From: a virus | Direction: 5' to 3' (one strand) | Virus record (IMG/VR): IMGVR_UViG_3300008255_000097 | Span: 123,225 to 187,224 of that record | Length of the DNA: 64,000 bases | Part shown: piece by piece, positions 19,549 to 54,638 of the stretch | Position numbering within the stretch: the first letter of the stretch is position 1 | Layout of the letters: every line of letters starts with the position of its first letter | Notes under the pieces: generated by a model | What the model saw: the letters and a program-made list of their open reading frames with translations, nothing else | Database searches by the model: none | Told to the model about the DNA's origin: nothing | Program-made: the position numbers and the translations under genes

Positions 19549-19836
19549 TTATATATCCAGGTCTAGTTGTTTAGGTTTAGTTGGTTCTACTTTCGGGGGT
19601 GCCGGTGGTACCTCCACTATATTCCAATAGCTTAATTCTATTCGATCATTTAACTCTCTCGGTGATGGTATACCAGGATTTCCAGCCTTCCACTTACCCT
19701 TAAAGTTTGTCCAAGCCTCTTTACGAGTATCGGCAGTTGTGTAAGCATATTTGTTTAACGGTTCCTTTGTCAGGTTGTGTACTATTGCCCATACAGCCAT
19801 TTTATCTCCTATAAATCTTAAATCGATGCAATGCAA
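19549..19836 (-). CDS. hypothetical protein
   Basis: 95-aa ORF. Confidence 0.35.
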   Translation of the reverse strand: MHCIDLRFIGDKMAVWAIVHNLTKEPLNKYAYTTADTRKEAWTNFKGKWKAGNPGIPSPRELNDRIELSYWNIVEVPPAPPKVEPTKPKQLDLDI

Positions 19837-22162: not shown

Positions 22163-23254
22163 ATGACATATGAAAAACTAATTCAGCGGCTCCTCGAGCG
22201 TACAGACAATTTTCCTGAGCCAACAGATGAACCTCCACTAGAAGGTAAGCCTAGCGCTTCAGCTATTATTCCAGGTTCAAAAGAAGACTTTTTTAATGAA
22301 TTAGTAAAAAAGGGATACAAGATTGAACAAGCGCCTGTTGATCCAGAGGCTGATGCTATGTGGGATCATGATCCAACTGACCCACAAACTACATGTGAAG
22401 ATGCAAAAGAAAAAATAGACCTAGCAAAATTAAGACTTGAGCGTGGGTTCTTCGCATTAGGTTCATTTTTAAATTATGTGAATATGGTCTGTAATGACCC
22501 ACGAATTGCATCTGCTGCTGTTGACCAGTCTGGTAATTTTTATTACAATAGTGATTTTATTAGTAAATTACCAATTGGTCAAGTTGCTGGACTAATAATG
22601 CATGAAGTCGCTCATATTGGAATGGGAGACCTCTTTAGATCAGAAGGACTCGACGGTAAACGCTGGAACATTGCAGCTGATTATGTTAATAATTGGTATA
22701 TAATGAACGATTTAGTTTCTCTGAATGCAGGACAAGAAGATGATGGTGAAGAAGGACTAAAACCTATACCTAGAGGTGGAGCACAAATTGTTATTAGTCT
22801 TCCAGTCGGAGGTCTTTATCCGGATCCGGATGGAATAATTCGACAAGTTCGTCTAGACAAAGAGAATGTATTAATCTTTCCAGACGCTAAACAAATAGAT
22901 CTTAATATGAGATCAACAGAAGAAGTATATGAAATGTTGAAAGAGCTTGATGATGATGTAATAGAAGCTATGAATGATGATCGATTTGATTCACATGTAT
23001 CGGCTACAAGTATTAATGCGGTTACAATTGAAGAGGTTGTAACAGAAGGTGGCAGCGGCGGTAGCGGGGGTAAAGGGCCAATAATTCCGGCAGACTTAAA
23101 AAATCTCTTAGTTATCGATAAACGTACCGGGCAGTTAGCTATTGTGGTTAATACAAACGACACGAACAAAACTGCAACTATTATTCCATTATCCAATCAG
23201 GAAGTTGAAACTATAAAGAGAGAATTTGATCTTAATGATCTACCAATACAATGA
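22163..23254 (+). CDS. HExxH metallopeptidase-like protein (vWA-partner type)
   Basis: LIMHEVAHIGMGD, C-terminal Gly/Ser-rich linker GGSGGSGGKG, ATGA overlap with the downstream vWA gene. Confidence 0.5.
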   Translation: MTYEKLIQRLLERTDNFPEPTDEPPLEGKPSASAIIPGSKEDFFNELVKKGYKIEQAPVDPEADAMWDHDPTDPQTTCEDAKEKIDLAKLRLERGFFALGSFLNYVNMVCNDPRIASAAVDQSGNFYYNSDFISKLPIGQVAGLIMHEVAHIGMGDLFRSEGLDGKRWNIAADYVNNWYIMNDLVSLNAGQEDDGEEGLKPIPRGGAQIVISLPVGGLYPDPDGIIRQVRLDKENVLIFPDAKQIDLNMRSTEEVYEMLKELDDDVIEAMNDDRFDSHVSATSINAVTIEEVVTEGGSGGSGGKGPIIPADLKNLLVIDKRTGQLAIVVNTNDTNKTATIIPLSNQEVETIKREFDLNDLPIQ

Positions 23255-24798
23255 ATAAATTTATCATATTTTTTGAAGCAAACAGTAAAGTAGATGTCGA
23301 TCAACTCGGAGGTATTCATCTACCTGACACAATTATCAAAGATATAATGTCTCGTAGTAATCCAGTTAATCGTACATTTGAGGAAATTGTTCGTGTTGCA
23401 GAATTAGTTGATCTTGTACCTCCAGAAGGCAGCGGAGGAGGCGGAGGTGGAGGTGGGGCACCTGCCCCGCGAGTTGATCCGCTACTAGATACAATGGCAA
23501 CAAAAGTTAGAAAGCCTAAATCAGACGGAGGGAAACCTGGAGAAGGAGAGCCAGGAGAGCCAAGTAAACCTGGAGAGCCAGGTAAGTCTGGAAGGCCAAA
23601 TACCCCAGGAGAGCCAGGGGAGCCTGGAGAACCTGGGGAGGGTACACCTGGTGAAGATGATAGTACACCAGGAGGACAACCCTCTGCTACCAGTGATGAA
23701 CCTAGTGCTGATGCGGATTACGGTGATACTGTTTCAGTAACACCTAATCCCGACGGTACGTTTACTGATCAGGATGGTAATATCTGGACTGCTGATCAGA
23801 TTCGAGATGCAGTACAGCGCGGCACACAGGTTAAAGGTGTTAGTAAACTATCAAAAGGATCGAGTGATCGTGTGCATGAAGCTGGTACTTTAATTACAAA
23901 AGAGGAACAGCGTAGCAAGCAAGGTATTGAGCAAATAGAAGATGAATATTCAGATGATAAGCCATCACAAAGCAGTGAAAATCAGTCAGTTGATGATATT
24001 AAGCGCGGGCTACGTAATACTAAATTATCCAAACATGATATAGAAGCACTCAAAGCCAAAATGGAAGAGCAAGCGGAGAAAGCGCGCGAGCAGATTGTCG
24101 AAGACCCTGATGCTACCGATGATTTTTGGAAGCAGAGAGCTAGAGAAGGTGCTGATATATCAACATCAAAAGGTTCTGGTGGAGGTGGTTCTAGTAATGA
24201 AAAGCTCACTGATAAAATAGTTAAAAGATTAAAAGCTAATATTAACTGGAAAGATGCACTAAAACGATTATTTACAAAACCAGGTGATAAGTATGAAGAC
24301 TGGAGACATCCATCTCGTCGTACATACGGTACAAGAGCTTATATGCCAATCCAGCGTGAAGATGAAAGTGAAATAGATGACTTTGCTGTAGCTATTGACC
24401 AATCAGGTTCATTGATGAGCAGTGAGGCTTTTTCCAAATTTATGAATGAGGTTATTAACTTGTTTAAGACAATTGATAACGCTCGCGGAGTTGTCTTAGT
24501 TTATGATGATAAAGTAACTGATGCAGTAGAGATTACACCTCAAAACTATAATAAACTATTAAATGTTAGACCTTCAGGTGCTGGTAATGATATGGATGCA
24601 GTACCAGCATATATGGAACGCCATATGAAGAATTTTAGACCGAAGGGTGTTATTTTCTTCACGGATGGATATGAAGAGCGGCCAAACTTACCAAAGAAAA
24701 TTAACGGTCAAATTGTAGATTATATTTTCTTTTTAGTTCCAGGAGGTAAAAGAGAGACCGTTGAGGGATTTGGACCAATTTATCCTATTGTTATGTAA
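23251..24798 (+). CDS. vWA (MIDAS) domain protein with collagen-like Gly-X-Y repeats
   Basis: GEPGEPSKPGEPGKSGRPNTPGEPGEPGEPGEGTPGE repeats and the MIDAS motif AIDQSGSLMS in the C-terminal third. Confidence 0.65.
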   Translation: MNKFIIFFEANSKVDVDQLGGIHLPDTIIKDIMSRSNPVNRTFEEIVRVAELVDLVPPEGSGGGGGGGGAPAPRVDPLLDTMATKVRKPKSDGGKPGEGEPGEPSKPGEPGKSGRPNTPGEPGEPGEPGEGTPGEDDSTPGGQPSATSDEPSADADYGDTVSVTPNPDGTFTDQDGNIWTADQIRDAVQRGTQVKGVSKLSKGSSDRVHEAGTLITKEEQRSKQGIEQIEDEYSDDKPSQSSENQSVDDIKRGLRNTKLSKHDIEALKAKMEEQAEKAREQIVEDPDATDDFWKQRAREGADISTSKGSGGGGSSNEKLTDKIVKRLKANINWKDALKRLFTKPGDKYEDWRHPSRRTYGTRAYMPIQREDESEIDDFAVAIDQSGSLMSSEAFSKFMNEVINLFKTIDNARGVVLVYDDKVTDAVEITPQNYNKLLNVRPSGAGNDMDAVPAYMERHMKNFRPKGVIFFTDGYEERPNLPKKINGQIVDYIFFLVPGGKRETVEGFGPIYPIVM

Positions 24799-24803
24799 GG
24801 AGT

Positions 24804-27746
24804 ATGATGAACATATTTAATGAAGAAATAAGAAAGCTTTATGAAGCAAATGACCTAGAAGGGTTTGATCCAGTCCCAGGTAAGGGCCAGGGAGGTGTAG
24901 GCGGATGGAAAGATGTTGGAATGTATCGCCCACAAGGTATGGGAACAACTGCAACAGATCCAGATGCGCCTGGATTACCAGCAATCAACCATGCAACGTA
25001 TAAATTTTTAGTTGAAGAATCTTATGGTGTTGAAGAAACTGAAGCAGAGCTTGGAACATCAAAAAAGCCTCTTCTTGTATTGGGTCGACCGGGGGTTGGT
25101 AAGTCTTTTGTTGTTAGAGATGTACTCGAAGACATGGCTTCAAAATATCCGAAGGCGGGTAACCCAGAGGAAATGCGCGAACCAGTTGTGTTTAACCAGC
25201 TTGATGTAGATAAGCAGCAAGCAGTTTTAAATACTCCAGGTGACTATTTTATTCTTATTGATGTACGAACATCACAACTAGAGTCAGTTGACTTTATCGG
25301 TATTCCAAAATTCAATACTGAAACTGGTCAAATTGAGGCTAATCAGAGGAAAGATGTAAAATCTCTATACGATCAAGGATTTACTCCAGATGAAATACAA
25401 GCTGTTTTAAGTAAAAACACGCAAGAATATTTACGAACAGCAAAATATAAATGGGCATATTTATCAACTCATCCAGATTCTCGTGGGTATCTATTCTTCG
25501 ATGAAATTAATCAAGGCACGCCTGATGTTATTAATGCTATGTATGCCGTAGTGCTAGATAGGGTTATATTTGATAAAAAAATATCTGATGGTGTTGCAAT
25601 TGTTGCAGCTGGTAATTTACAGGAGCACGATCCTGCGTCGCAAAACCGTCCGATGCCAAAAGCGTTGATACGTCGGTTCCAGCAAGGAGTCGCATCTTTG
25701 GTTATCGATCCAGATGATTGGTTAAGTTGGGCGATTAGTAAGAATATTCATCCAACTATTATTGCATTTGTCTCATCAAATAAAGCGCAAAACTTCTACC
25801 ATCGATTTGATGCAGATAGTCAAAATAATCGATTTGCAGATCCAGACTCAATTACTAATCTTTCAAAATTTTTATACAACGCAGAACGCCGATTCTTTTC
25901 GCAAGATGTTGACGCTCGTAACTATGCTGATCTGGTTCGAGAGTATGATCGTATCGCTAGAGCTATTGTTGGCTCACAGTGGGCAGCTAACTTTGTTAAG
26001 TTTGTTACAGAGCTCAAATCTGATAAATTTATCAGTCCTAGAAAATTAGGTGCTGGACAGCGATGGAAGAATATCAACACTGCACAGACATTAACTATGA
26101 TGCTCGTTACAACTGATCCACAACTAAAAAAACCTCAATCTCAAGCTCTTGCATCTGCTATTCTTAATTGGCGGGATAAGACTGAAGCAGATGATAGACA
26201 GACCGCCAATAATGTTATCGGTGCACATCAAATTGAAGGATTAACAAATGAATTAGTTATTTTTAAAGAGTCTTTAAAAACTTTTAGTAAATCTGACAAA
26301 AGACTATCTGATGAACAAATATCCCAGGCTGTGGAGCAAGCTGTAGGGGGTGAATATCAAAGTGAATTTACCACTTATGCTAACTCTGATGAAACAACTA
26401 ATCTCTTAGCTGTTAACCATGCAAGCTATTTAAAGACATTAGAACACGCTTGGGATACAAAAGAGTCATTACTAGTGTACGGTGACCCTGGTATCGGAAA
26501 GAGCTGGGCTGTTAAGAAGTTCGCACAACAGAAAGCAGAAGAGCTTGATTTACCGTTTGCAGATGTTAGTAGTATGCCAAAAGATGAGCTATCAAAAGTA
26601 GCGAGTAATTCTAACGGGTATTTTCTATTCATGGATGTTCGTGTTGCACAGATGACAACCGCTGACTTTATTGGTATTCCGAATGTATTTGATGCAGAGA
26701 AGGAGTATCTAGAAACTAAACCGTATCTATGGGTATGGCTGGCAACTAGACCAAATGTTGTTGGTATACTATTCTTTGATGAAATGAATCAAGCAAGTAA
26801 ACAAGTATTGAAAGCTATGTACTCAGTTGTTAATGCAGATGATAAATTTATTTTTGACCGTAAGATATCAAAAGATATTCTTGTTATTGGAGCTGGTAAC
26901 TTAAAATCTCAAGAAAACGCAGCCGCTGTCAAAACTCAACTACCTATTGCACTAACTAGACGATTTAAAGCAGGTACTGTTGTACTTGAACTTGATCCAG
27001 AAGAGTGGATAGATTGGGCTCTCAATCAAACAGGAACGCCAAATGAAATTCATCCAATCTTATTATCGTTTATCATGTCTAGACCGCATCCAAAAGCATA
27101 TATCTTTTACAAAGAGGGGGATTACGACTATTCCCAGGATGTAACACCGGATACACTAAGAGCACTGTCTCAGAACATCCGTCAATCTGAACAAAAAATG
27201 AAACAAGCTCTTCAAAGTGGTAGTATAGATGAAAATCAAGCAAAACAAATGTTTACAAAAGATGTACAGACCCATGTCCGTGCTAATACACCACCTAACT
27301 ATGCGAATGAACTTCTTGATTTCTTATATAAGATTGTAAATATTAATTGGGACCAGATTGTAGCAAATAAAGAGATGTTTAGAGATCCGCAGGCACTCCG
27401 TCGACAGGGAGAAGAGGGTAAGAGTATGTTAGCAACTATATTTGCTTGGTTACCTTATAAGATAGAAGTACTAAAAACTATTATTGCAAGAGATCCAGAA
27501 ATGCAGAGCCCTATAACTCGTCAAAGAGTAAAAGAAATTATTGATTTAATGGGAATATACCATAATAACTATCGTAGTGCATTCTTCTCGTTTATGAAAC
27601 GCTTAATTGGTGATACAGCTATTAAGGATTTTATGATCAAATATGTTGCAAACAACCCCCATTTAGATGCAGAAACAAAAAACAAAGCAAAAGAGATTTT
27701 TATTTCTACCGCAACACGTACACAACAAGCACTTGGAGGAAAGTAA
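24804..27746 (+). CDS. tandem AAA+ ATPase (two MoxR/AAA_5-type modules)
   Basis: Two Walker A sites (LGRPGVGKSF and YGDPGIGKSW), two Walker B sites (LFFDEINQ and LFFDEMNQ), two sensor/arginine-finger segments (AAGN...RRF and GAGN...TRRF); 980 aa. Confidence 0.75.
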   Translation: MMNIFNEEIRKLYEANDLEGFDPVPGKGQGGVGGWKDVGMYRPQGMGTTATDPDAPGLPAINHATYKFLVEESYGVEETEAELGTSKKPLLVLGRPGVGKSFVVRDVLEDMASKYPKAGNPEEMREPVVFNQLDVDKQQAVLNTPGDYFILIDVRTSQLESVDFIGIPKFNTETGQIEANQRKDVKSLYDQGFTPDEIQAVLSKNTQEYLRTAKYKWAYLSTHPDSRGYLFFDEINQGTPDVINAMYAVVLDRVIFDKKISDGVAIVAAGNLQEHDPASQNRPMPKALIRRFQQGVASLVIDPDDWLSWAISKNIHPTIIAFVSSNKAQNFYHRFDADSQNNRFADPDSITNLSKFLYNAERRFFSQDVDARNYADLVREYDRIARAIVGSQWAANFVKFVTELKSDKFISPRKLGAGQRWKNINTAQTLTMMLVTTDPQLKKPQSQALASAILNWRDKTEADDRQTANNVIGAHQIEGLTNELVIFKESLKTFSKSDKRLSDEQISQAVEQAVGGEYQSEFTTYANSDETTNLLAVNHASYLKTLEHAWDTKESLLVYGDPGIGKSWAVKKFAQQKAEELDLPFADVSSMPKDELSKVASNSNGYFLFMDVRVAQMTTADFIGIPNVFDAEKEYLETKPYLWVWLATRPNVVGILFFDEMNQASKQVLKAMYSVVNADDKFIFDRKISKDILVIGAGNLKSQENAAAVKTQLPIALTRRFKAGTVVLELDPEEWIDWALNQTGTPNEIHPILLSFIMSRPHPKAYIFYKEGDYDYSQDVTPDTLRALSQNIRQSEQKMKQALQSGSIDENQAKQMFTKDVQTHVRANTPPNYANELLDFLYKIVNINWDQIVANKEMFRDPQALRRQGEEGKSMLATIFAWLPYKIEVLKTIIARDPEMQSPITRQRVKEIIDLMGIYHNNYRSAFFSFMKRLIGDTAIKDFMIKYVANNPHLDAETKNKAKEIFISTATRTQQALGGK

Positions 27747-28048
27747 TGGAAAAAGACAATTTTAGTTTTAATAGAACAGCACAAAGCTTAGTAAAAGATA
27801 CTGATTCTGATGAATTAGTAGAGCCATCTAAATTTTTTACACAAGCTATGAATGAGCTTCAAGAACGATATAACATTCTACAAAGCTCTAAACAATTCAA
27901 CGAAGCAAAGAGTCATTTATTAACTATTGTTAAAACAACCAGTAGATTGACTGAAGATGAACAAGACTATTATGCAAATCGGGTAAATAATCTAAGAGGT
28001 ATAGTACAATTGTTAATGTTTCTACATCAAGAAATAAAAGGATTATAA
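27746..28048 (+). CDS. hypothetical helical protein
   Basis: 100 aa, ATGA-coupled to the ATPase gene. Confidence 0.4.
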   Translation: MEKDNFSFNRTAQSLVKDTDSDELVEPSKFFTQAMNELQERYNILQSSKQFNEAKSHLLTIVKTTSRLTEDEQDYYANRVNNLRGIVQLLMFLHQEIKGL

Positions 28049-29382
28049 TGAGAACACACTCTGAAACGCTATTAGAGCAAATTTACCGTAAGCAAGTTTT
28101 AAAAACAGATGCACCTGTATTAGTGGAAGCATCAGTTTTTGCAAAGTATTTTGAAATGCCCGGAAAGGCAATGGAAACTATTCATGATGAAATAGGTATT
28201 ACAGCAGATGCAGTGCCCGAAAGACCTATTGATGTAAGTAAGAGTGATAGACCGTTTGATCCGACTGGGATGAAACAGCAAAGATGGTCAGGGAGAGGAC
28301 TAGCATCAACACCAGATGCGAGTTTAGGACCAAAGCATAAAGAATTGAGAAAAGTCTTTGAGAGAGGTGATGGACTTTTTGTTGTTAACCCTGAGACAAA
28401 TACAAGAGTTATTATCAAACATAAAACCGAAAATCCATATCAAAGCCCAGCAACACGTGACAGCAGACACGTACCTAAGCAGTCTACATATAATGTATGG
28501 ATATTCGATGAAGCTGGTGATTTGAGAAAGAAGATTAACTGTCCAATGACAGGAAGAACAGAGAGAATTCAATATGTGGATCCTACCGGTAAGATTGCAA
28601 CTGGTGCTCCTATCGTTATGCATAAGATTCCAGAGAAAGGTGTGTACGTTGAAGAGTCGGATCTCTTAGCTTGGAAAGCATATGAAAAGAATAGCTCACT
28701 TTCTCCGCCAGCTACATATACTTCAGAAGAACTTCAAAAGATGCATAATAGCGGTCAAAATATAATCTTTGTTGAGCCTATTCCGAAGGATGCAAGTAGT
28801 AATATGTATGTTCGTTATGTTGATCAAACAGATGCAAAAGCGTTCATAATACCTAATACAGCTTTTCGTGCCACTAAAAAAGATGATCTAGGTTATGTCG
28901 GTGTTAGTTCCTACAGAACCTCTTTGAATAAAGTATCAACTCCTGTAAGACCTACTAGAGAAATTAGCAAATTAATAATCAATAAGTACGGAAAAGCAAT
29001 TAAAGCAAAAATTCAATCAGTTTTAGAACCTCTAAAAAATGGTATTGTTGATGTATTAAGCGATCTTCGTGTTGATACTGAAGTTGTTCAAAAATTGATA
29101 ACAGATTATCGTACCTTTTTAAAGCTACAGAATGATGTATCACAGCTAGATCTTGCAACTGACATTGCGAATTTTCTTGATTTGGACACAGATACTAACG
29201 CAAGAGTAAAAGGAGGTAATATAGGAGATTATGGTATAACGACACGTGATGGTGTTGTTTTCTTCAAAAGTGAAGAATCTTTTAACCAGTTTCTCCGTGA
29301 ATTCACTCTCGCTTATATTAAAACTTTTACTTCAACACAAACTGAGGAAGCTGTAGTTGATTCTATGGTAGATATCTTCTAA
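28048..29382 (+). CDS. hypothetical protein
   Basis: 444 aa, ATGA-coupled; no recognisable motif. Confidence 0.45.
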   Translation: MRTHSETLLEQIYRKQVLKTDAPVLVEASVFAKYFEMPGKAMETIHDEIGITADAVPERPIDVSKSDRPFDPTGMKQQRWSGRGLASTPDASLGPKHKELRKVFERGDGLFVVNPETNTRVIIKHKTENPYQSPATRDSRHVPKQSTYNVWIFDEAGDLRKKINCPMTGRTERIQYVDPTGKIATGAPIVMHKIPEKGVYVEESDLLAWKAYEKNSSLSPPATYTSEELQKMHNSGQNIIFVEPIPKDASSNMYVRYVDQTDAKAFIIPNTAFRATKKDDLGYVGVSSYRTSLNKVSTPVRPTREISKLIINKYGKAIKAKIQSVLEPLKNGIVDVLSDLRVDTEVVQKLITDYRTFLKLQNDVSQLDLATDIANFLDLDTDTNARVKGGNIGDYGITTRDGVVFFKSEESFNQFLREFTLAYIKTFTSTQTEEAVVDSMVDIF

Positions 29383-29390
29383 ATACTAAT

Positions 29391-29879
29391 ATGAAAAGTA
29401 CAACAAAAAAATCATCTAGAACTAAAACTATAAAAAAGAAACTACCTGTGGCAACAGATAAAGACATTAACGCGCTAGCAAGTAGTATTATTGCAGAGAG
29501 AGAAGAAGCGCGAGTTAAAGAAGATATCCAACTCGAGGACCCTGATATTAGTATCGATCTACCTGCTGCTGTACACAGTTTTGAAGAAGAACCTCGTTCT
29601 ATAGAGCAACCTAAACAAGTTACTCGTAAAAATATTACAGAAGGAAAAACACCTTTAACACCTATCATTATAAAGAAGCACGATAGAGAAATATTCAACC
29701 ATCTCTCCGAGCAGTTCGGCGAACAAGATGGTAGCTTCTTTGTTTTGAATGAACTATGTCAATGGCGAACTAGATCAGATGGTAGGAAGAAGATAAAGAC
29801 AGTATTAGTCGAAGATATAAACGGCTATAGATATCAAATATTCTTCGATGTCACAGCAACTAGCTTTCTCCATGGGTAG
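29391..29879 (+). CDS. hypothetical basic protein
   Basis: 162 aa with a Lys-rich N-terminus; last gene of the plus-strand island. Confidence 0.4.
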   Translation: MKSTTKKSSRTKTIKKKLPVATDKDINALASSIIAEREEARVKEDIQLEDPDISIDLPAAVHSFEEEPRSIEQPKQVTRKNITEGKTPLTPIIIKKHDREIFNHLSEQFGEQDGSFFVLNELCQWRTRSDGRKKIKTVLVEDINGYRYQIFFDVTATSFLHG

Positions 29880-33555: not shown

Positions 33556-34941
33556 TTAGAGAGCTGCGTTGGCGCGCACTTGATCAAATGTGATCTCGTT
33601 TACCATCAACCCGTTAACAAACACAGGCTTTAGACGGTTAACTGTTGATTCTGTAGCCTCTTCAACTCGTATTGTTTCGAACTGACCGTTATTACTTGTC
33701 AATATCAAACGACCACTCTTCGACTTCTTGCTGGTATCTAACGGATTCTTCTGGATATCATACCACACATCACTACGCTGCTGAGCGCTGCTTTTGAAAG
33801 CAAACCGTTGTGTATCGCGATTAATTTTCTGTAGAAGACCACCGCCCATACCAAATACAATATTGTCTGCACACCAGTGGTTGTTGCGCATGGTATACAG
33901 AATACCGCGAATACCGTTGTAGTCAATACCATCACCCCAAAGCGTACCGACCTTTGGATTAAGCTGGCGATATCCTTTAGCGTTTTTGGTTGAGCCAAAT
34001 ACCGTATCAAGACCTTCCAGCACATCAATTGTTACTGAATCAGGATCACCGGAGTCGGGACGAAATACAACCTTACCATCTCGTGCAAGAATTTGGTCTT
34101 TAAATTCTTTTGCATACTCATCAATGAAGCGACGATAGTTGTATGAGTCGATAACCACACTAAGGATGCCCTTTGGGAATCGATCAAGCATCTGTTTGAA
34201 TACAGCTTTCTCTCCTGATTCACCGCGAGCAGTCATAACACTGTGCTCCGACGCTGGAACACTATATGCAAGACCGTTGATAGGTGCGTCATAATACTCT
34301 CGAGCATACTGCATTGCTGCAATAGTGTCCGTACCCATGAAGTTGACGATGTGACCTGCACCAGCGATGCCTGCTGCTTCACATTGGTTGACACCACGGA
34401 ACCCAAAGTCATGTAACATGAAGTTGAGTGCACCCATGTTGCCGCCAGTTGCCTCTAAATAGTAATTAAGAAGAATCTTAACCTCTCGACTCAAAGACGC
34501 AACAGTCGATGGACCCCAGACGTGTGTAAGGAGTGACTCAAAGTGATTTGTCAATGGAGCACACCGTGGATCGGTATTTTCAACAGTCATCATCACGTTG
34601 TTGATATCAACTGGAGTACCTTCCGGTACAGCCATAATCCTCAACGGAAGTCGCCCGCCATGGACCCTGAGAATATGCTCCCACATCTCGCGATTAAAAT
34701 ATTCAGCACTTCCAAGATGTGCAACGACGAGCTCTTCACCTTCGTCGATATCTTTCTTTGTGATCCCTTTCACTAAATACTCTTTGATGAGATACTGAAG
34801 ACCGAAAAATACGGTCTTGTTGAATGTTGCACCAACCCGTGCTTCAAAGTATGAATAAACTGTCTGTGTATCGCTAGGATACATAGCGTGGTGTAACACT
34901 TTGTAGGAATCGGTTAGTACTGTCAGGTTCTCTTTATTCAT
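33556..34941 (-). CDS. nadV: nicotinamide phosphoribosyltransferase (NAMPT/NadV)
   Basis: N-terminal LTDSYKVLHHAMYP...VYSYFEAR matches the NAMPT signature; 461 aa. Confidence 0.8.
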   Translation of the reverse strand: MNKENLTVLTDSYKVLHHAMYPSDTQTVYSYFEARVGATFNKTVFFGLQYLIKEYLVKGITKKDIDEGEELVVAHLGSAEYFNREMWEHILRVHGGRLPLRIMAVPEGTPVDINNVMMTVENTDPRCAPLTNHFESLLTHVWGPSTVASLSREVKILLNYYLEATGGNMGALNFMLHDFGFRGVNQCEAAGIAGAGHIVNFMGTDTIAAMQYAREYYDAPINGLAYSVPASEHSVMTARGESGEKAVFKQMLDRFPKGILSVVIDSYNYRRFIDEYAKEFKDQILARDGKVVFRPDSGDPDSVTIDVLEGLDTVFGSTKNAKGYRQLNPKVGTLWGDGIDYNGIRGILYTMRNNHWCADNIVFGMGGGLLQKINRDTQRFAFKSSAQQRSDVWYDIQKNPLDTSKKSKSGRLILTSNNGQFETIRVEEATESTVNRLKPVFVNGLMVNEITFDQVRANAAL

Positions 34942-35151
34942 TTTATTTTCCTTTCATGTATCATTAAACCATTACTTGGTTATTTTATTCATCCTCTATT
35001 TCTGCCTCTAACTTTCGACCATCAATTACGTATTGTACTGCTATTCCAGTTGCAGATGAATTACTATCTTTATGATAGATCTCCAATGGAGATTCACAAA
35101 CAACTTCCCATCCATCAGATTCAAGTAAACACTTATCTGTAATGTCCATTT

Positions 35152-35391
35152 TTAACTCCTTGGTGAATGAACTCGTAGTATAGATTGTTGACCTTTGCGA
35201 TTTGTATTCTTTTTGAATTCTTTGAATCCGTCATTAGACACAATCTGTATCGACGGAGCTGTTTTATGCTCCCATACCATTACTCCACAGACTTTTGATG
35301 TAGTGACATTTTTTGCACACATCGAGCATTTATCACTGTTGAGTAGCTCGATTCGTACTTGTTCAATTTCTCTACCGCAACGACATCTCAT
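35152..35391 (-). CDS. zinc-ribbon protein
   Basis: CRCGRE...CSMC. Confidence 0.35.
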   Translation of the reverse strand: MRCRCGREIEQVRIELLNSDKCSMCAKNVTTSKVCGVMVWEHKTAPSIQIVSNDGFKEFKKNTNRKGQQSILRVHSPRS

Positions 35392-35396
35392 AGCTG

Positions 35397-36332
35397 CTAT
35401 ACTTCTTTAGCGGTTTCAGATGGACAAAGAACTTTGTCTTGTAGCGCTTTGTATAGTATGCGATGGTTTGGAACGATATTATCTAATGTAATGTCACTCA
35501 CATTAAACCATTTACATTCTGCGATATCATCCGCAGCGCGAGGTGACCCGAAGAGGTACTCTGTGTAATAAAACAGAGTGCGAATACAATCATCACATGA
35601 CTGGTAACGCCAGTCTTCAATATTGTAGCTTCCGAGGTAATTCTTATATGTGATAGGTGTCGTTTCGATGTCAGGAATCTCTTCAGATAGCTCGCGGTTA
35701 GCAGCAGCTTCGTTATTCTCATCACGACTGTCGACAAACCCTCCTGGGAAGCGCCATAAGATCTCATTCGACTTCCTTGCGAGGAGTACTTGGCTGTGAT
35801 CTGGTTTAATAACAGCTATATCAACGGTCGTATAGACAGTATCAAAACGTTGCCATGAAGCCCAAATAGCACCGTGACGAAATTCACGACATGCATGAAC
35901 TTGGTTCTTGACCATTGCACGGATTTCAGAACCAGATACCCAATGCTCTTGGATAAGCTCCTGGGTATTGTATCGTCCTTTGTAGTGGTCGATAAATGAA
36001 TCACGTCCACCATATAGGGTTACGGATTGCTTTGGACCGACAAGTGACCGGATTTGATCATCGAGCTTCGAACTCCAGATCTCATCGAGTGGTTCGTCTT
36101 TAATATAAGCAACCATAACACTCGGAAATGCTTCGTTGATCATATGCTGACGAGATTGGAAGTCTAGTGGGTCTTCAGAATTGAAGACAGGTGACAATCC
36201 AAGAAAGACGATAACTTTATCGTGCTCATCACAGATGGATTGAATAAGTTCTTTATGCGCCTCATGTAGATCGGGAACTTGAAACCGACCTACAATTATA
36301 CCAACATCAGTTTTATCACGTTTAACCTTCAT
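35397..36332 (-). CDS. natV: bifunctional NMN adenylyltransferase / Nudix hydrolase (NatV-like)
   Basis: GIIVGRFQVPDLHEAHKELI is the NMNAT nucleotidyl-binding motif; C-terminal Nudix box ANRELSEEI. Confidence 0.75.
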   Translation of the reverse strand: MKVKRDKTDVGIIVGRFQVPDLHEAHKELIQSICDEHDKVIVFLGLSPVFNSEDPLDFQSRQHMINEAFPSVMVAYIKDEPLDEIWSSKLDDQIRSLVGPKQSVTLYGGRDSFIDHYKGRYNTQELIQEHWVSGSEIRAMVKNQVHACREFRHGAIWASWQRFDTVYTTVDIAVIKPDHSQVLLARKSNEILWRFPGGFVDSRDENNEAAANRELSEEIPDIETTPITYKNYLGSYNIEDWRYQSCDDCIRTLFYYTEYLFGSPRAADDIAECKWFNVSDITLDNIVPNHRILYKALQDKVLCPSETAKEV

Positions 36333-37107: not shown

Positions 37108-37494
37108 TTAGTACGCTGGGAGATTACCAGTTATAAGTTTAATTTTGTCAAAATCTGCAGGTCCAATTGATAGCCCTGTTGTCGTAAGAATAGGTCGACG
37201 TAAAATCTCTGAATAGATAGTATCTTTAAACAGCCAAACCGGTAAACTTACCTGGTTTGCTTCCTTAAAAATGATGTCTAATTCATCAAAATTGTTTACA
37301 GCAAGAACTGATATATACGGATCTTTCATCCAATCTCTTACATCAGGAGGAAAAATATCCTTTATAGTTTTATCTGGATTCTCCCAAATCTTCTGGCGCA
37401 TAAAGTGATCTGAAATATGGGCGGCTTGAGCCATTGCTGCCCCCAGTGAAAGGTGCAGATCGCGTCTAATAATAATTACATGTCGTGTATTCAT
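37108..37494 (-). CDS. peptidyl-tRNA hydrolase, PTH2 family
   Basis: VIIIRRDLHLSLGAAMAQAAHIS matches the Pth2 core (DLxMxxGKxAAQxxHA). Confidence 0.6.
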   Translation of the reverse strand: MNTRHVIIIRRDLHLSLGAAMAQAAHISDHFMRQKIWENPDKTIKDIFPPDVRDWMKDPYISVLAVNNFDELDIIFKEANQVSLPVWLFKDTIYSEILRRPILTTTGLSIGPADFDKIKLITGNLPAY

Positions 37495-37537: not shown

Positions 37538-37963
37538 TTAGCTTGTATATCCTAGCTCTTTAATGTGAGCTTCACATAGAGTTTTATACCAGCCACCCTT
37601 CTTTACTGTTTGACCATATTTACCGCAGATCTCACAAGTTTGCTCGCTGTTACGTTCAGCCGCACCTATTACATGGTAAATAATTTTATCCCAAACATCC
37701 GCATTTTCAAAATTTGGTGGAAATAATACATTGACATAAAATCGAAGACCGCCAAATTTTTCTTTACATTGCTGTGCTATAGTCTGTATACCTGTCATTT
37801 TCTCAATTGCATCCAACTCCTCACACATCTCATCGATTAATTCATACCAACCGTCATCACATTCAAACCCAAAACACATTAAACTTTGTGTCGGTGGTAA
37901 ATCTTTATTCTGAAATATAGTTGGATATTTCTCGTGTAGCTTTTTTGTATTCTCTTTATTCAT
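37538..37963 (-). CDS. hypothetical zinc-binding protein
   Basis: 141 aa; CEICGKYGQ...C. Confidence 0.4.
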   Translation of the reverse strand: MNKENTKKLHEKYPTIFQNKDLPPTQSLMCFGFECDDGWYELIDEMCEELDAIEKMTGIQTIAQQCKEKFGGLRFYVNVLFPPNFENADVWDKIIYHVIGAAERNSEQTCEICGKYGQTVKKGGWYKTLCEAHIKELGYTS

Positions 37964-37983: not shown

Positions 37984-38355
37984 TGGTGGACCCGGGGGGA
38001 GTCGAACCCCCGTCCGTATTAGAAGCCGTCATACTTTCGTTCACATGCTTTGCAATGATTTATCGACCCATGCTCGTCTATCTAAGTTATATGCTTTTAG
38101 TAAGCTGATATAGTTCTTTCCACTATTCAAAGTCCAGGTTCATTTACGGTTCTACCTATCTCCGGTCTTTGTAATGACGCTAATAACACTTACCAAGACA
38201 ATCTCAGTGCGTTTGCGGGCTAGGTATCTCTACGCAGCCATTTTGAGTTCAGTGTCGCCACTTAATTCTTGTACCCGGATTTTTTACGAGGCCAACCAGA
38301 TATCCTCGGCATGCAAATATAATCTCTAACCTATACGTCGAAACCAAACGGGCCC
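37984..38355 (-). ncRNA. ssrA: tmRNA (ssrA)
   Basis: 3' end GGACGGGGGTTCGACTCCCCCGGGTCCACCA (T-arm plus acceptor plus CCA); 5' GGGCCCG pairs with CGGGTCC and includes G3-U70; GCATGCCGAGG...GGTTGGCCTCGTAAAAAA aligns to the PK1 region; candidate tag frame GGC GAC ACT GAA CTC AAA ATG GCT GCG TAG. Confidence 0.8.
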
Positions 38356-38562
38356 TTAAATCTCTGCAATAATGTACTCTGCCTTCTTGGCACCTTCAGG
38401 AACACCTTTCTCAAAAAGCTGTTTCCATTCTTGATCTGTGATCTTTGCTGTCGGAATACAAAATATGTTTTCAGTGTCATTCCAGTACATCTGGTGAAAT
38501 ACCTCAAACAGGACTTGATATCCCGTAACAAGTAAAATACAATTTGTTTCAAATACTTTCAT
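38356..38562 (-). CDS. hypothetical small protein
   Basis: 68-aa ORF ending at the tmRNA 5' end. Confidence 0.25.
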   Translation of the reverse strand: MKVFETNCILLVTGYQVLFEVFHQMYWNDTENIFCIPTAKITDQEWKQLFEKGVPEGAKKAEYIIAEI

Positions 38563-39543: not shown

Positions 39544-40443
39544 CTAAGCAACCATAGGTTTCAACCTATTTTGTATTCTCTGTTTAAATAGACCAACGGT
39601 TTTTTTGCTTATTGCTGATCGAGCCTCTTTTGTATCTACAATCTCTCCCTCTGCTTCTCTCATCACATCTTCAAGCATTGCCTTGATTACGTCTGGAATA
39701 TTCTCCATGCCTATCCCTTGTGGAAGCTTGTCTAAGACGTGCTCAAGCCTCATCTCAGTAACCCATTCATCAGCGATCTCATTAGCTTCAGTTAATACTT
39801 TAAGTTTCGCTGGATCAATTATCTTTTGAACAGTCTTTCTTTCAGAGAATTTATCACTCTTATGCTTGGCACAAATACGTGATCCATTGTTACCAGTCAT
39901 CTCCATGAGTGGACGTAGCACAACACCTTCACGCAGTAGTGTCTTTCCTTCCGGTAGTTTACTTGTATCGACCTTATTACGGAAACATTGCACTGAATCA
40001 CGATCTCTTTCATGGTCAATCGCTTCTACAGTCGCCGGAATCCTTACATAGTCCACAAATTCTAGATCAAAAGCTTTAGTTACACTCTCAGCATCTAGTA
40101 CACTAAGCCAGCAATCGTCAACTTTTACATCGAAAACTACAAATTTCAATTCTTTACCATACAGGTAACTCATGCCCTGGCATTTGCCGCCATATGCTTC
40201 ACCGTATAGTGTGTAAGTTATAGTCGATGCCGGATCAAGAGCCAAATAACGAGTACGTAGATCTTCTTGATTAAACAAGCCAACGAAATTAGTATGCTTC
40301 TCGCCACCGGAAAAAAATATAATGTCATTAGGTGTTATTTTTACATGTGCACTTGTACCGTGGATTTTTTCCATTGCAAAGCACTCTTTAAACATTAAGA
40401 TATTTTGTTCCTTGTATAGGTTAGAAATGTGCGCGTACCCCAC
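39544..40443 (-). CDS. RNA ligase (Rnl2-like)
   Basis: Motif I MEKIHGTSAHVK matches the KIHGTN adenylation site of T4 Rnl2. Confidence 0.65.
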   Translation of the reverse strand: MGYAHISNLYKEQNILMFKECFAMEKIHGTSAHVKITPNDIIFFSGGEKHTNFVGLFNQEDLRTRYLALDPASTITYTLYGEAYGGKCQGMSYLYGKELKFVVFDVKVDDCWLSVLDAESVTKAFDLEFVDYVRIPATVEAIDHERDRDSVQCFRNKVDTSKLPEGKTLLREGVVLRPLMEMTGNNGSRICAKHKSDKFSERKTVQKIIDPAKLKVLTEANEIADEWVTEMRLEHVLDKLPQGIGMENIPDVIKAMLEDVMREAEGEIVDTKEARSAISKKTVGLFKQRIQNRLKPMVA

Positions 40444-41130: not shown

Positions 41131-42639
41131 TTAGTCCTTCAATGAAATCTTCTCAATCATATGCACAAGCGCCTTACAGTCCTGCTCCAGCATCTTCATG
41201 ATATCAAAAATCTTATCACTAAATCCGGCAATACAATAGACATCATTCTCTGGGAACATCATGTCACCTTGACCACTAAGATCAAAGCTATAGATCTTCG
41301 GAGTTACATTGAACTTCTTCTTGTATTCCGTAAACTGCTTGGTAGGTGCACCACCAGATATCCACCCTTGCATATCCGAAAAGATAACAATACGGTTGTA
41401 CGCCTTATTTATAGTCTTGAAGATCAAAGGGAAATCTGTTCCATGTCCTACCTGCATCTTTCCACCCGTCACCGATGAAGATGATCCCCAGCCGCTGCTA
41501 TTGTTATGAGTCATAAACTCATCCGCAAGAGCCAGTGCCGGGATTGACGGATTATAATCGATGTACGCCGCACTATTACCGAAGATCATGAAGTCTCCGT
41601 TTTGTGCCTTTGCCATCAGTGCACCAAATATAGACCCGATACCGCGATATGATGTTGGACCATTCCCCATCGATCCAGAGTAATCAACTACAACGAGAGT
41701 ATCACCGTCAAGGACAGGAATATTTGCACAAGAAATATCAAGTGCCTTAGTAAGAGCAACAGTCGCCTTACGAACTCGTGCGGAATCACCCTTGAGGTTA
41801 TTAATTGCAGTTAGAAAGCGGTATGGAAATACCAACGACTTCTTAATCATATGCTCATTAACGAGAACCTCAAGCAACGCGTTGAACGTATCTGCATCAG
41901 CCTGCTCGATAATGTTGTTGATGTTTCGAAGCGCCGCGAAGTAACCGAGCTTCTTCTCTGCAAGCAAAGTCTTCCACGCATCTGCCTTCGCATCTGCCTT
42001 CTCCTCTTCAGTGTTAGAATTCTGACCAGCCGCGGTAAGCTTTGCCTCCCACGTCTCTGTGGAGCGAAGATTATCATTAATAAGACCCTTAAGAGCCTCT
42101 GCATTCTTTTCTGTCGGTGCTGGGCGTACGAGATTAACAACATCTACAAGGGAGACGTTCTTGCCGTCACCACGATACTTTGCTAGCTGGTAACTGTCGA
42201 ACTTTCCAAACGCCTTTGCAAATCCCTTCTTGAGAGAGTTTGGAATTGGCTTGCCATAAGTCCTAAGATAGTAAGCGAGCGTCTCAGTCATATCATCCGG
42301 GCGATAAACAACCTTTGCAAAAAAGTCCTTGGTCCAGTCAGCACCCTTTACGGTATTTGCAACTTCAGCAGCTACAACATGCGTAATTGAACGCATACCG
42401 AATTCATTACGAGCAAAGATTGCAGACTTCGCAAGAAACTCCTTATCAGCAAGCCCTCTGACGAGTTCTTGTGTGCGAGTAACTTGTTCACTTGCCGACC
42501 GATAATATTGATCCTTGATCAATGATGTTAGAAGCAACGAGATAAACTCGAGCTTATCTGTCTGCTTGTATGCTGCTCCACCTGCGCGGTTTATAGTCTT
42601 AGTTGTCTTCTGTGGGATAGCTGAATTGAACCTTGCCAT
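41131..42639 (-). CDS. Ro60-like TROVE domain protein with C-terminal vWA domain
   Basis: N-terminal NRAGGAAYKQTDKLEFISLL resembles TROVE; MIDAS motif LVVVDYSGSMG; 502 aa. Confidence 0.7.
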   Translation of the reverse strand: MARFNSAIPQKTTKTINRAGGAAYKQTDKLEFISLLLTSLIKDQYYRSASEQVTRTQELVRGLADKEFLAKSAIFARNEFGMRSITHVVAAEVANTVKGADWTKDFFAKVVYRPDDMTETLAYYLRTYGKPIPNSLKKGFAKAFGKFDSYQLAKYRGDGKNVSLVDVVNLVRPAPTEKNAEALKGLINDNLRSTETWEAKLTAAGQNSNTEEEKADAKADAWKTLLAEKKLGYFAALRNINNIIEQADADTFNALLEVLVNEHMIKKSLVFPYRFLTAINNLKGDSARVRKATVALTKALDISCANIPVLDGDTLVVVDYSGSMGNGPTSYRGIGSIFGALMAKAQNGDFMIFGNSAAYIDYNPSIPALALADEFMTHNNSSGWGSSSSVTGGKMQVGHGTDFPLIFKTINKAYNRIVIFSDMQGWISGGAPTKQFTEYKKKFNVTPKIYSFDLSGQGDMMFPENDVYCIAGFSDKIFDIMKMLEQDCKALVHMIEKISLKD

Positions 42640-42769
42640 TTTATTCTCCTTAGTTTTTCAGTGAGAAACTCACTGCACTGTTATTACTAAATCCTCCATG
42701 TACCTTACATAGAGGGATTGCACATACCTCTATAATAGAGGCAAGATTGAAAAATGCAACAGGGGGAAC

Positions 42770-43639: not shown

Positions 43640-43796
43640 AGGATTTGTTTCATGTAAAATTAAATAGCTATTTACAGCATTAGGCTCAGTTACAATAATC
43701 GGTTCTCCTGCTTTCCATATCTTATCCGGAAATACCGTTGCTGCATAATCAACTGCTTTTTCCGCTGCGTTAGGATATGCGCCAGTAGATGCAACT

Positions 43797-46095: not shown

Positions 46096-46842
46096 ATGCT
46101 GTCTCCTATAAATATTTATATGAAAACAATTTTGGATTCTATAGTTAACATTGATCAGTTTCATTCTGCAAAATATGATGACATTGTTGAAGTCGTCTGT
46201 GCACAATGCTCGCAAACATATAAAAGAAAAAAACGAGATATTAAGGCATATCAACGAAGAAATTTATCTGCAAGTGTATGCAAAAAATGTCAAAATGCTA
46301 ATCAAAAAACCGGCTCAAAAGTACAATGCCCAGAATGTGGAAAGTCTAGCTACAAACCGGTAGAGAAGATATCAAAAGGTTACATATTTTGTAATGCTAC
46401 TTGCTCTACCACATACAATAATAAACATAAAGATTACGGATATAGACGCTCAAAACTTGAAAAATGGATAGAAGATCGGTTAATACAGGACTTTCCAATA
46501 CTTGATATTCATTTTAACTCTAAACAAGCAATCGAAAGTGAACTTGATATTTACATTCCTGCTCTCCGTTTAGGTATTGAATTGAATGGTATCTTTCATT
46601 ATGAGCCTATTTACTCACCGAATCAATTTAAACGAATTCAAAATAATGATCAACAAAAAATTATTGAATGCTATAAACGTGGAATTGAGCTCTGTGTTAT
46701 TGATACTTCAACACAAAAATACTTCTCTGATAAAACATCAGAAAAATATTATGCCATAGTCACTAATATAATTAATCGCTGTTTGAAAAGATTGGAGCAG
46801 ACAGAGGGAATCGAACCCCCGACAGGCTTATCACCTGCTTAA
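46096..46842 (+). CDS. Vsr/DUF559-like PD-(D/E)xK endonuclease with N-terminal zinc fingers (homing-endonuclease-like)
   Basis: C-terminal LDIYIPALRLGIELNGIFHY...GIELCVID fits the DUF559 core (D...IExDG.H); CxxC pairs at the N-terminus; lone plus-strand gene in the tRNA array. Confidence 0.5.
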   Translation: MLSPINIYMKTILDSIVNIDQFHSAKYDDIVEVVCAQCSQTYKRKKRDIKAYQRRNLSASVCKKCQNANQKTGSKVQCPECGKSSYKPVEKISKGYIFCNATCSTTYNNKHKDYGYRRSKLEKWIEDRLIQDFPILDIHFNSKQAIESELDIYIPALRLGIELNGIFHYEPIYSPNQFKRIQNNDQQKIIECYKRGIELCVIDTSTQKYFSDKTSEKYYAIVTNIINRCLKRLEQTEGIEPPTGLSPA

Positions 46843-46885
46843 CCGGATTTGCAGTCCGGCGCCTTAGCCACTCGGCCATATCTGC
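46793..46885 (-). tRNA. class II-type tRNA with GCA anticodon (possible tRNA-Cys on a long-variable-arm scaffold)
   Basis: Anticodon arm CCGGA CTGCAAA TCCGG, 22-nt variable arm, T-arm GGGGGTTCGATTCCCTC, discriminator U73, CCA encoded. Confidence 0.5.
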
Positions 46886-47008: not shown

Positions 47009-47094
47009 TGGTACGGGAGGAGGGACTTGAACCCTCATGCACCATTACTCTAATTATAACCGCCCTGCTTATAAGACAGGTGAGATACTCCCGT
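47009..47094 (-). tRNA. atypical tRNA-like gene (86 nt; anticodon arm CCTGT CTTATAA GCAGG gives TAT; D-arm not resolved)
   Basis: Clear T-arm GAGGGTTCAAGTCCCTC, acceptor ACGGGAG/CTCCCGT and CCA; internal fold is ambiguous. Confidence 0.35.
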
Positions 47095-49214: not shown

Positions 49215-49289
49215 TGGAGCCACTGCAGGGATTCAAACCCTATTATCCGATTTACGAGACCGGCGCATCATCACTTATGCTTCAATGGC
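49215..49289 (-). tRNA. tRNA-Thr(CGT)
   Basis: Anticodon loop CTCGTAA, CCA encoded. Confidence 0.65.
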
Positions 49290-51912: not shown

Positions 51913-51942
51913 GAAGTAACTCAACATCTCACTACTTTTATT
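51913..51942 (+). repeat. tRNA-trailer hairpin repeat copy c
   Basis: GAAGTAACTCAACATCTCACTACTTTTATT before the CCA of tRNA-Ala. Confidence 0.6.
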
Positions 51943-52017
51943 GGTGGACCCGACAGGAATTGAACCTGCATCTCCTCGGTGCAAGCGAGGTGCTAAACCA
52001 GTGTCAGCTACGAGCCC
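51942..52017 (-). tRNA. tRNA-Ala(TGC)
   Basis: Anticodon loop CTTGCAC, G3-U70 pair, T-arm GCAGGTTCAATTCCTGT, CCA encoded. Confidence 0.8.
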
Positions 52018-52328: not shown

Positions 52329-52360
52329 GAAGTAACTCTTTCTTTCACTACTATTAAAAC
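52329..52360 (+). repeat. tRNA-trailer hairpin repeat copy d
   Basis: GAAGTAACTCTTTCTTTCACTACTATTAAAAC. Confidence 0.6.
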
Positions 52361-52459
52361 TGGTCGGGAAGGTGGGATTCGAACCCACGAAGCACACACG
52401 CTTAGTGCACTTGTCCGGTTCCAAGCCGGATGAGGAAAGCCAGACTCCTCCACTTCCCG
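52361..52459 (-). tRNA. class II-type tRNA with TGG anticodon (Ser-like scaffold)
   Basis: Anticodon arm TCCGG CTTGGAA CCGGA (E. coli tRNA-Ser(UGA) has CUUGAAA), about 25-nt variable arm, 5' CGGGAAG, T-arm GTGGGTTCGAATCCCAC, CCA encoded. Confidence 0.45.
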
Positions 52460-54539: not shown

Positions 54540-54627
54540 ATGGCTGATAGGGCCAGACTTGAACTGGCAGGGATACAAAGTATCAAAGGTTAACAGCCTT
54601 CCCCGTTACCATTACGGTTTACCTATC
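54540..54627 (-). tRNA. class II-type tRNA with GTT anticodon (Tyr-like scaffold)
   Basis: Exact acceptor TGATAGG/CCTATCA, anticodon arm GAAGG CTGTTAA CCTTT, 16-nt variable hairpin GATAC..GTATC, CCA encoded. Confidence 0.5.
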
Positions 54628-54638
54628 ATTCGCGAAAA

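Follow-up and report, generated by a model that had tools for sequence, protein, structure and literature searches.

The window analyzed here is a stretch of 64,000 nucleotides of viral DNA (positions 123,225 to 187,224 of the IMG/VR record IMGVR_UViG_3300008255_000097). On its minus strand lies a gene for a transfer-messenger RNA (tmRNA, ssrA). ARAGORN reports this tmRNA at 37984-38355, with the tag GDTELKMAA* coded at nucleotides (nt) 97-126 of the gene. A scan of the whole window with the Rfam model RF00023 returns the same interval on the same strand (108.8 bits, E 1.3e-41, model positions 1-374 of 374). The gathering score of the model is 47 bits. The original prediction, made from the letters alone, placed a 372-nt minus-strand tmRNA at these coordinates and named a covariance-model score below threshold as evidence against itself. 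Both programs agree with it, and the score lies well above the threshold.

Judged from its sequence, this is a genuine and complete tmRNA gene of a very large, tRNA-rich, uncultured phage. The covariance model matches over its full length, and the RNA has a tRNA-Ala-like domain, a first pseudoknot (PK1), an internal tag frame and downstream pseudoknots. The parts of the gene are listed in window coordinates, with nt counted from the 5' end of the RNA and helices abbreviated H:

37984-38355, minus strand: tmRNA (ssrA) gene, 372 nt, one-piece (ARAGORN; Rfam over the full length; identical copies elsewhere)
38349-38355, minus strand: 5' strand of the acceptor stem, GGGCCCG (nt 1-7; G3 at 38353), pairing with 37988-37994
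38309-38337, minus strand: 5' strand of helix 2 (nt 19-47), pairing with 38015-38048
38273-38308, minus strand: PK1 (H3, nt 48-52/65-69; H4, nt 55-60/78-83), from comparison
38230-38259, minus strand: tag frame (resume codon GGC 38257-38259; stop codon UAG 38230-38232), from ARAGORN
38218-38239, minus strand: helix 5 (nt 117-121/134-138), whose loop contains the stop codon, from comparison
38165-38217, minus strand: PK2 (H6, nt 139-141/176-178 and 146-149/167-170; H7, nt 157-161/187-191), from comparison
38135-38164, minus strand: PK3 (H8, nt 192-194/207-209; H9, nt 198-202/217-221), specific to a sub-lineage (the window and the related contig L179)
38082-38126, minus strand: two hairpins (nt 230-246 and 256-274), from comparison by eye
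38052-38081, minus strand: PK4 (H10, nt 275-280/289-294; H11, nt 283-285/302-304), from comparison
38015-38048, minus strand: 3' strand of helix 2 (nt 308-341), from the structure model and pair counts
37995-38011, minus strand: T-arm GGGGG/UUCGACU/CCCCC (nt 345-361), from the Rfam alignment
37984-37994, minus strand: 3' strand of the acceptor stem, CGGGUCC (nt 362-368; U70 equivalent at 37990), then discriminator A and encoded CCA (nt 369-372), from sequence and pair counts
51942-52017, minus strand: phage tRNA-Ala(UGC), from ARAGORN, with an acceptor stem and ACCA end that nearly match those of the tmRNA

The tRNA-like domain has a 7-bp acceptor, a G3·U70 pair, a discriminator A and a T-loop of the UUCGA type, and it is without an anticodon arm. 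The alanine-type acceptor with G3-U70 had been predicted and can be read directly in the sequence. The predicted T-arm is present as well, but it is not directly followed by CCA: the 3' strand of the acceptor and then ACCA intervene. The acceptor strands of the phage tRNA-Ala (GGGCUCG/CGGGUCC-ACCA) are nearly the same as those of the tmRNA (GGGCCCG/CGGGUCC), which fits both RNAs being charged by one alanyl-tRNA synthetase.

The tag frame reads GGC GAC ACU GAA CUC AAA AUG GCU GCG UAG and encodes GDTELKMAA, so that the added tag is (A)GDTELKMAA. ARAGORN and direct reading return the frame and peptide that were first proposed. The proposed GGC resume codon also stands; it starts at nt 97 and not at about 95 nt. 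The resume codon of the Rfam model falls on the same GGC, which is preceded by UAAGU, that is, by U(-5) A(-4). This is the conserved frame-setting context of the Escherichia coli tmRNA (U85 A86). TAG terminates 14 of the 66 open reading frames (ORFs) of the window. Since TAG is a common stop, the genetic code is standard and the tag frame ends at UAG. The +1 frame (GCG ACA CUG..., giving ATLNSKWLRRDT) was rejected because it lacks both U(-5) A(-4) and the Ala-Ala end, and because Rfam places the resume codon at GGC.

Comparative test of the pseudoknotted structure

Between the tag and helix 2 the posterior probabilities of the Rfam alignment are low. Hence we tested the pseudoknots by comparison. 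Relatives were fetched with two sequence probes, CTCGTAAAAAN{25,55}ATGGCNGCNTRR on IMG/VR and CTCGTAAAAAN{8,24}TAAGTGGNNACAC on metagenomes. Five tmRNAs could be aligned over their full length: those of the window, L179, L180, L177 and L189 (alignment A4). From the window sequence we wrote down an explicit structure consisting of H1, H2a-d, PK1, H5, PK2, PK3, two hairpins, PK4 and the T-arm.

In this alignment 83.7% of the cells are paired, compared to 36-48% when the partners are slid by 1-3 columns, a figure that is favoured by deriving the structure from one of the aligned sequences. The number of pair changes on both sides, which is not favoured in this way, is 26, compared to 4-12 in the slid controls. 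None of 500 shuffles matched the observed pair values. Pseudoknots that do not fold had been named as a second way to refute the prediction, but the pair counts and compensatory changes in the five tmRNAs point to folding. Together with ARAGORN and Rfam, the pair counts support the core of the prediction, a phage-borne tmRNA gene.

The support is spread over the whole molecule. The acceptor G3·U is present in 5/5 relatives, and acceptor positions 4-5 carry compensatory changes. All cells of the T-arm are paired (100%), and two of its pairs change on both sides in the five-sequence alignment. The sub-helices of helix 2 are 79-100% paired across the relatives. A natural variant in L176 (Ga0100391_1044324) differs by a single A>C at tmRNA nt 29 (helix 2b), which turns an A-U pair into C·U. 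The PK1-like segment of the prediction, GCAUGCCGAGG...GGCCUCGUAAAAAA, is present in the sequence. Its H3 is invariant, and H4 changes on both sides in 5/6 pairs among the relatives (for example, UCUGG/CCGGG to GAUAG/CUAUC to AAGG/CCUU). Every relative has a hairpin equivalent to helix 5, with a shifted register.

Downstream of the tag, PK2 and H10 of PK4 are backed by conservation and compensation; PK3 and the two hairpins are backed only within the closest relatives. PK2 is 80-100% paired. Compensatory changes occur in L179 (C141-G176 to U-A) and in L189 (CAC/GUG to CAU/AUG, and GUCUU/AAGAC to AUCUU/AAGGU). H10 is 92% paired, and H11 is replaced by ACCU/AGGU in L179 and by AUUAC/GUGAU in L180. 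PK3 is confined to the window and L179, the latter having C-G in place of U202-A217 and U-A in place of U198·G221, and its support in the five-sequence pair counts is weaker; L180 and L177 carry a deletion of this region. In the same two relatives the stems of the two hairpins are swapped for other complementary sequences (AGUGU/ACACU, CUAG/CUAG, CGAU/AUCG). The pair counts of the two hairpins are low because the automatic alignment is out of register there. The first hairpin may be a small pseudoknot, in which AAG 238-240 pairs with CUU 252-254.

Conservation in related phages

The same phage with an identical tmRNA occurs in six independent assemblies, on contigs of up to 171,746 bp; contigs of 0.2-1 Mb are in the index. 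A literature search for the accessions of the samples gave no result. Its best protein matches are to uncultured huge phages of 462-635 kb. In GenBank phages blastn finds no match to the tmRNA, and a megablast search with 16 kb around the gene finds only one match of 186 nt.

The related phage contig L179 carries 18 tRNAs and keeps the gene order endonuclease VII, RNA ligase, PD-(D/E)XK nuclease, 68-amino acid (aa) ORF, tmRNA, 141-aa ORF. Nucleotide identity between the window and L179 is 88% for the tmRNA, 69-82% for four of the five flanking genes and 94% for endonuclease VII. At the amino acid level the 68-aa ORF is 70% and the 141-aa ORF 60% identical. Many of the substitutions between the two tmRNAs are compensatory. 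The tag changes little: GDTELKMAA in the window, GDTQLKMAA in L179 and GNTDLKMAA in L180, with the consensus G-[DN]-T-x-L-K-M-A-A. The frame of L180 also shows a synonymous GCG>GCC change and a change of the stop codon from UAG to UAA. Both the RNA and the encoded tag peptide look to be under constraint.

A family of phage tmRNAs

The IMG/VR probe yields 28 loci. Apart from four chance matches, these are tmRNAs, carried by about 24 viral contigs; eleven of the contigs measure 120-494 kb, often with tRNA arrays alongside. The window tmRNA is a member of a broad phage family with short, Gly-initiated and MAA-terminated tags. Tags of the family include GNTFAMAA, GNTEFAMAA, GTNSYAMAA, GNSTFAMAA, GNSYAMAA, GEVSYAMAA, DEVSYAMAA, GEANYAMAA and GESQFAMAA. 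Tags with a [KR]MAA end form a subgroup (ADAPMKMAA, ANSNTLRMAA, ..PLRMAA, ..PRRMAA). Many family members were missed by ARAGORN (L031, L033, L035, L036, L038, L043, L045, L054 and others), while Rfam matches them over the full length with 68-151 bits. Surveys of phage tmRNAs that use ARAGORN only are therefore probably undercounts.

Phage tmRNAs are already known. A catalogue of phage ssrA genes from 2014 lists phage G, eight Bxz1-type mycobacteriophages and, with a form reduced to the tRNA-like domain (TLD), DS6A (PMC4131195). TmRNA together with SmpB was reported in huge phages in 2020 (Al-Shayeb et al., PMC7162821), and the tmRNA of Bacillus phage G with its tag AKLNITNNELQVA was re-described in 2025 (PMC12484599). 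The original statement that phage-borne tmRNAs are uncommon is overstated for phages of this class, given the catalogue (PMC4131195), the report (PMC7162821) and the roughly 24 viral contigs from a single IMG/VR probe. What we add is modest: a family-level picture and a conserved LKMAA ending.

The tmRNAs of huge or jumbo phages (PMC7162821) and of phage G (PMC12484599) resemble the present case in that they sit in huge phages with many tRNAs and other translation genes. In contrast to them, the tmRNA sequence has no blastn relation to GenBank phages, its tag differs, and the SmpB of some huge phages is not found in about 77 kb. The mycobacteriophages of subcluster C1 (Bxz1, Cali, Catera, Momo; PMC4131195, PMC4472892) are lytic, and share with the window phage a large size and at least 30 tRNAs with one complete tmRNA. 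Their hosts belong to another phylum, their genomes are unrelated and their tags are different.

Compared to the one-piece tmRNA of bacteria (RF00023), the phage RNA has the same plan: a tRNA-Ala-like domain, a long helix 2, PK1, an internal tag frame that lacks a start codon and whose stop codon sits in the loop of a hairpin, further pseudoknots downstream, and a tag with a hydrophobic-Ala-Ala end. It differs in the PK3/PK4 region, which holds two extra hairpins, and in the Lys at -4 of the tag. The gene differs in being phage-encoded and part of an operon-like array, without a promoter or terminator signal of its own and without an adjacent smpB.

For a cellular sample we ran the IMG/VR probe on one genome per species (at least 120 loci) and collected 76 MAA-tag tmRNAs with a local ARAGORN; what follows on cellular tags holds among the matches listed. 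Gly-initiated MAA tags occur in Saprospiraceae (GKSNFAMAA), Chitinophagales (GNYQFAMAA), Flavobacteriales, Bdellovibrionota (GDNYAMAA), Phycisphaerae (GNSQFAMAA) and Zixibacteria. They share with the phage tag the Gly resume codon, a length of 8-10 residues and the MAA end. However, the bodies of these tmRNAs are not close to the phage RNA, and their residue at -4 is Ala, or Arg in some phyla, instead of the Lys of the phage. RMAA ends occur in Isosphaeraceae, Brocadiia, Balneolales and Rhodothermaceae. Among the matches listed, which are restricted to MAA tags, no cellular tmRNA is similar to the phage tmRNA outside the universally conserved ends, and none of the 76 is a Firmicute tmRNA with a short MAA tag.

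The tag had originally been called Bacillus-style. This label is uninformative: a Gly resume codon is common to the phage family and to many non-Firmicute phyla. The tag of Bacillus subtilis, (A)GKTNSFNQNVALAA, has 14 codons and an LAA end, as opposed to 9 codons and an MAA end in the phage. Apart from the Gly resume codon and the Ala-Ala end, the two have nothing in common, and nothing points to a Firmicute host.

Some other tmRNAs show peculiarities of their own. On five metagenome contigs (L178, L184, L186, L190, L192) the tmRNAs have a tag frame that opens with UAAGU|GGC AAC ACU and encodes an unusually long tag, GNTSIWDVINGFVGAPATEVEYA[VI]AA, of 26 codons. The related phage tmRNA of L023 (IMGVR_UViG_3300044634_001771, 265-855, plus strand; tag DEVSYAMAA) has an insertion of about 240 nt within the T-loop, between GGUUC (about 597) and GACUCCCC (about 840). 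The uninterrupted relative L054 reads GGUUCGACUCCCC. The Rfam tmRNA alignment of L023 stops at 603, and the insert folds with z = -2.35. It matches no Rfam family, group I introns included, at E <=0.1. The insert contains AUAUAGUCC, which we take to be a group-I-intron-like motif, and is a candidate for a small intron or mobile insertion. In L038 about 7 kb separate another tmRNA of the family from a group I intron (2190-2417, plus strand; RF00028, 102 bits).

Genomic neighbourhood

The G+C content of the window is 37%. Rfam finds 34 tRNA genes in it and ARAGORN 40, almost all of them on the minus strand. Also on the minus strand lie the neighbours of the tmRNA gene. In order, these are Ro60/TROVE, endonuclease VII, RNA ligase, PD-(D/E)XK nuclease, the 68-aa ORF, the tmRNA, the 141-aa ORF, PTH2, NMNAT/Nudix and NAMPT. 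The genes that matter here are:

41131-42639, minus strand: Ro60/TROVE RNA-binding protein (PF05731, E 4.5e-18; PHROG 850)
39544-40443, minus strand: RNA ligase (PF09414, E 1.2e-11)
38356-38562, minus strand: 68-aa ORF, upstream, with a TAA stop that abuts tmRNA nt 1
37538-37963, minus strand: 141-aa Cys-rich ORF, downstream, starting 20 nt past the CCA
37108-37494, minus strand: PTH2-type peptidyl-tRNA hydrolase, two genes downstream (PF01981, E 6e-12)
19802-21271, minus strand: CCA-adding enzyme (Pfam PolyA_pol head, RNA-binding and HD domains)

The 68-aa ORF has no match in Pfam or PHROG, and the 141-aa ORF has neither a family match (Pfam, PHROG) nor a structure match. Homologues of the 141-aa ORF were found only in uncultured huge phages. 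A functional tie between this ORF and the tmRNA was considered and rejected, because in three huge phages the homologues are not beside a tmRNA. The predicted PTH2 is a second ribosome- or tRNA-recycling function beside the tmRNA, and the CCA-adding enzyme could repair the 3' ends of tmRNA and tRNAs. Farther away in the window Pfam finds an Rnl1-type ligase, a DNA ligase and a cREC domain of the cyclic-phosphate-processing type. Altogether, an RNA-repair and translation island includes two RNA ligases, Ro/TROVE, PTH2, the CCA-adding enzyme and the tRNAs.

In a scan for promoters and terminators no signal rose above the shuffled background, and none was positioned so as to delimit a separate tmRNA transcription unit. 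The tmRNA is internal to a contig of 171 kb or more and has phage-type RNA-repair genes and tRNA arrays around it. It is a phage gene inside a very large phage genome, and not a host ssrA at the end of a prophage.

Near the Ro/TROVE gene Rfam detects no Y RNA at E <=1; intergenic gaps lie at 42640-42769 and 43640-43796. Outside the window the same phage encodes a bL28 homologue (L281 2-238, past the window end) and a weak bL12-like protein (L278 16657-17133, before the window start).

Probable function of the phage tmRNA

We consider it likely that this gene of a huge, uncultured phage makes a working tmRNA of the canonical one-piece type, which acts in ordinary trans-translation. The hallmarks of the gene and its conserved position and structure in related phages are observations; from these we infer the following course. 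The tmRNA would be transcribed within a long minus-strand polycistronic RNA, as suggested by the missing promoter and terminator signals and by flanking ORFs that lie flush with the gene. RNase P would cut at G1, and the 3' end would be trimmed to the encoded CCA, which the phage CCA-adding enzyme could repair. The host alanyl-tRNA synthetase would charge the RNA with alanine via G3·U70 and A73, an identity set that is also on the phage tRNA-Ala. SmpB, probably that of the host, would bring it to ribosomes that have stalled on mRNAs that are broken or have no stop codon. Translation would resume at GGC, add (A)GDTELKMAA and end at UAG. The ribosome would be released, and host proteases that recognize C-terminal tags would degrade the tagged fragment. 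Together with PTH2, the RNA ligases, Ro, the CCA-adding enzyme and the tRNAs, the tmRNA may keep the translation machinery going during infection. The benefit would arise during host mRNA degradation, or under attack by host defences that cleave tRNAs or mRNAs.

Several observations weigh against this interpretation. The Rfam alignment has a low posterior probability across the PK2-PK4 region, and the support for PK3 and the two hairpins comes mostly from two or three sequences, read by eye. That host proteases accept the tag is an assumption. Furthermore, Pfam finds no SmpB among 69 window ORFs. A local SmpB hidden Markov model, built from 17 SmpBs that adjoin cellular or prophage-flank ssrA genes, also finds none in six-frame ORFs of the window, of 10 kb past one end and 2.5 kb past the other, and beside the relatives. 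Function would then rest on a host SmpB that accepts the tRNA-like domain, or on a phage gene elsewhere. With no SmpB in about 77 kb, the phage probably depends on the host protein. In IMG/VR, most of the best 80 of 400 SmpB loci are host genes at prophage ends, and none of these 80 is on a contig of the window tmRNA family.

As to the host itself, the huge-phage relatives hint at Bacteroidetes (genomes of at least 634 kb are predicted to infect this group). We did not adopt this assignment, since other window proteins do not lead to those genomes. Shine-Dalgarno-like motifs precede 22 of 48 ATG starts (46%), compared to a background of 11%. A frequency of this order does not fit Bacteroidota.

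The rival explanations differ in what they make of the tag and of the missing SmpB. The original prediction saw a possible phage control of trans-translation, or a degron of the phage's own. The RNA may trans-translate but carry a customised degron, an LKMAA-ended tag unlike that of the host, which sends products to another protease or away from the host adaptor. The LKMAA end is conserved in three phage variants, and Lys at -4 is found in 0/76 cellular MAA tags among the matches listed. Moreover, related phage tmRNAs that form one clade by their bodies differ in the C-terminal end of the tag (LKMAA, FAMAA, LALAAA). However, the difference from the host tag is hypothetical, and an Arg at -4 (RMAA) is nothing unusual in the cellular tags of Isosphaeraceae, Brocadiia, Balneolales and Rhodothermaceae. 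The phage tag ADAPMKMAA is also close to the cellular ADAPVRMAA, a likeness that hints at a tendency of phage tags to follow those of their hosts. We consider a customised degron unlikely. One can go further and suppose that LKMAA is a phage-lineage degron that re-routes stalled products or replaces a disabled host tmRNA, with PTH2 and the RNA-repair genes forming a counter-defence island. We regard this as a speculative idea with little chance of being right. If true, the phage tmRNA would be more than extra rescue capacity; a host tmRNA that it replaces would be one disabled during infection or by a defence that induces stalling.

The missing SmpB (window and about 12.5 kb of extensions) would also suit an RNA that mainly titrates host SmpB or alanyl-tRNA synthetase and so shuts down host trans-translation; such a role has been proposed for TLD-only molecules like that of mycobacteriophage DS6A, and a TLD-only phage ssrA and inhibition by TLD mimics have been discussed (PMC4131195). 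A decoy does not need an mRNA-like domain, yet here this domain is intact and under selection, with a conserved resume context, frame, stop hairpin and PK1-PK4. Inhibition as the main role is therefore very improbable. Least probable of all is a passenger, either a piece of host ssrA left at the attachment site of a temperate phage that integrates into tmRNA genes, or mis-binned bacterial DNA. Such cases do exist: many of the IMG/VR loci that match a generic PK1 probe are ssrA genes of hosts, located where a prophage ends and next to smpB. The window gene, in contrast, is full length rather than a 3' piece. It sits inside contigs of 171 kb or more, with phage-type genes and tRNA arrays all around, and is syntenic in the diverged phage L179. 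No integrase turned up in a Pfam scan of 69 window ORFs, and no tmRNA among the cellular matches listed is similar beyond the universally conserved ends.

As a well-documented example, the gene adds to the picture of a translation-maintenance kit in huge phages, which here holds about 35-40 tRNAs, tmRNA, PTH2, a CCA-adding enzyme, RNA ligases, Ro and nearby ribosomal proteins. More useful than the single gene is the family of phage tmRNAs with Gly...MAA tags that a simple probe recovers. A clade with a conserved RNA body but changing C-terminal degron residues offers, as soon as hosts are identified, a way to ask if phage tags track host tags. We know of no phage tmRNA for which a function has been shown. 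An experimentally tractable example would therefore matter; the window phage is uncultured.

Other features of the window

A pair of genes for NAD+ salvage lies at 33556-36332 on the minus strand, consisting of NAMPT (33556-34941) and a fused NMNAT-like/Nudix protein (35397-36332). The sole plus-strand block (22163-29879) encodes a DUF2201 metallopeptidase-like protein, a VWA-like protein, a 980-aa double-AAA (MoxR/dynein-like) ATPase and three uncharacterised ORFs. A second DUF2201_N gene is found before the window start (L278 15293-16660).

Some tRNA calls are long or discordant. At 52343-52459 ARAGORN lists overlapping tRNAs of about 100 nt, Arg(tcg) on the plus strand and Pro(tgg) on the minus strand, where Rfam has none at the gathering score. 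Other long ARAGORN calls (88-96 nt) include 46793-46885, 54541-54628 and 59779-59874. Two tRNAs, at 49218-49289 and 47012-47094, are found by Rfam and not listed by ARAGORN. These calls may be intron-containing or degenerate tRNA genes.

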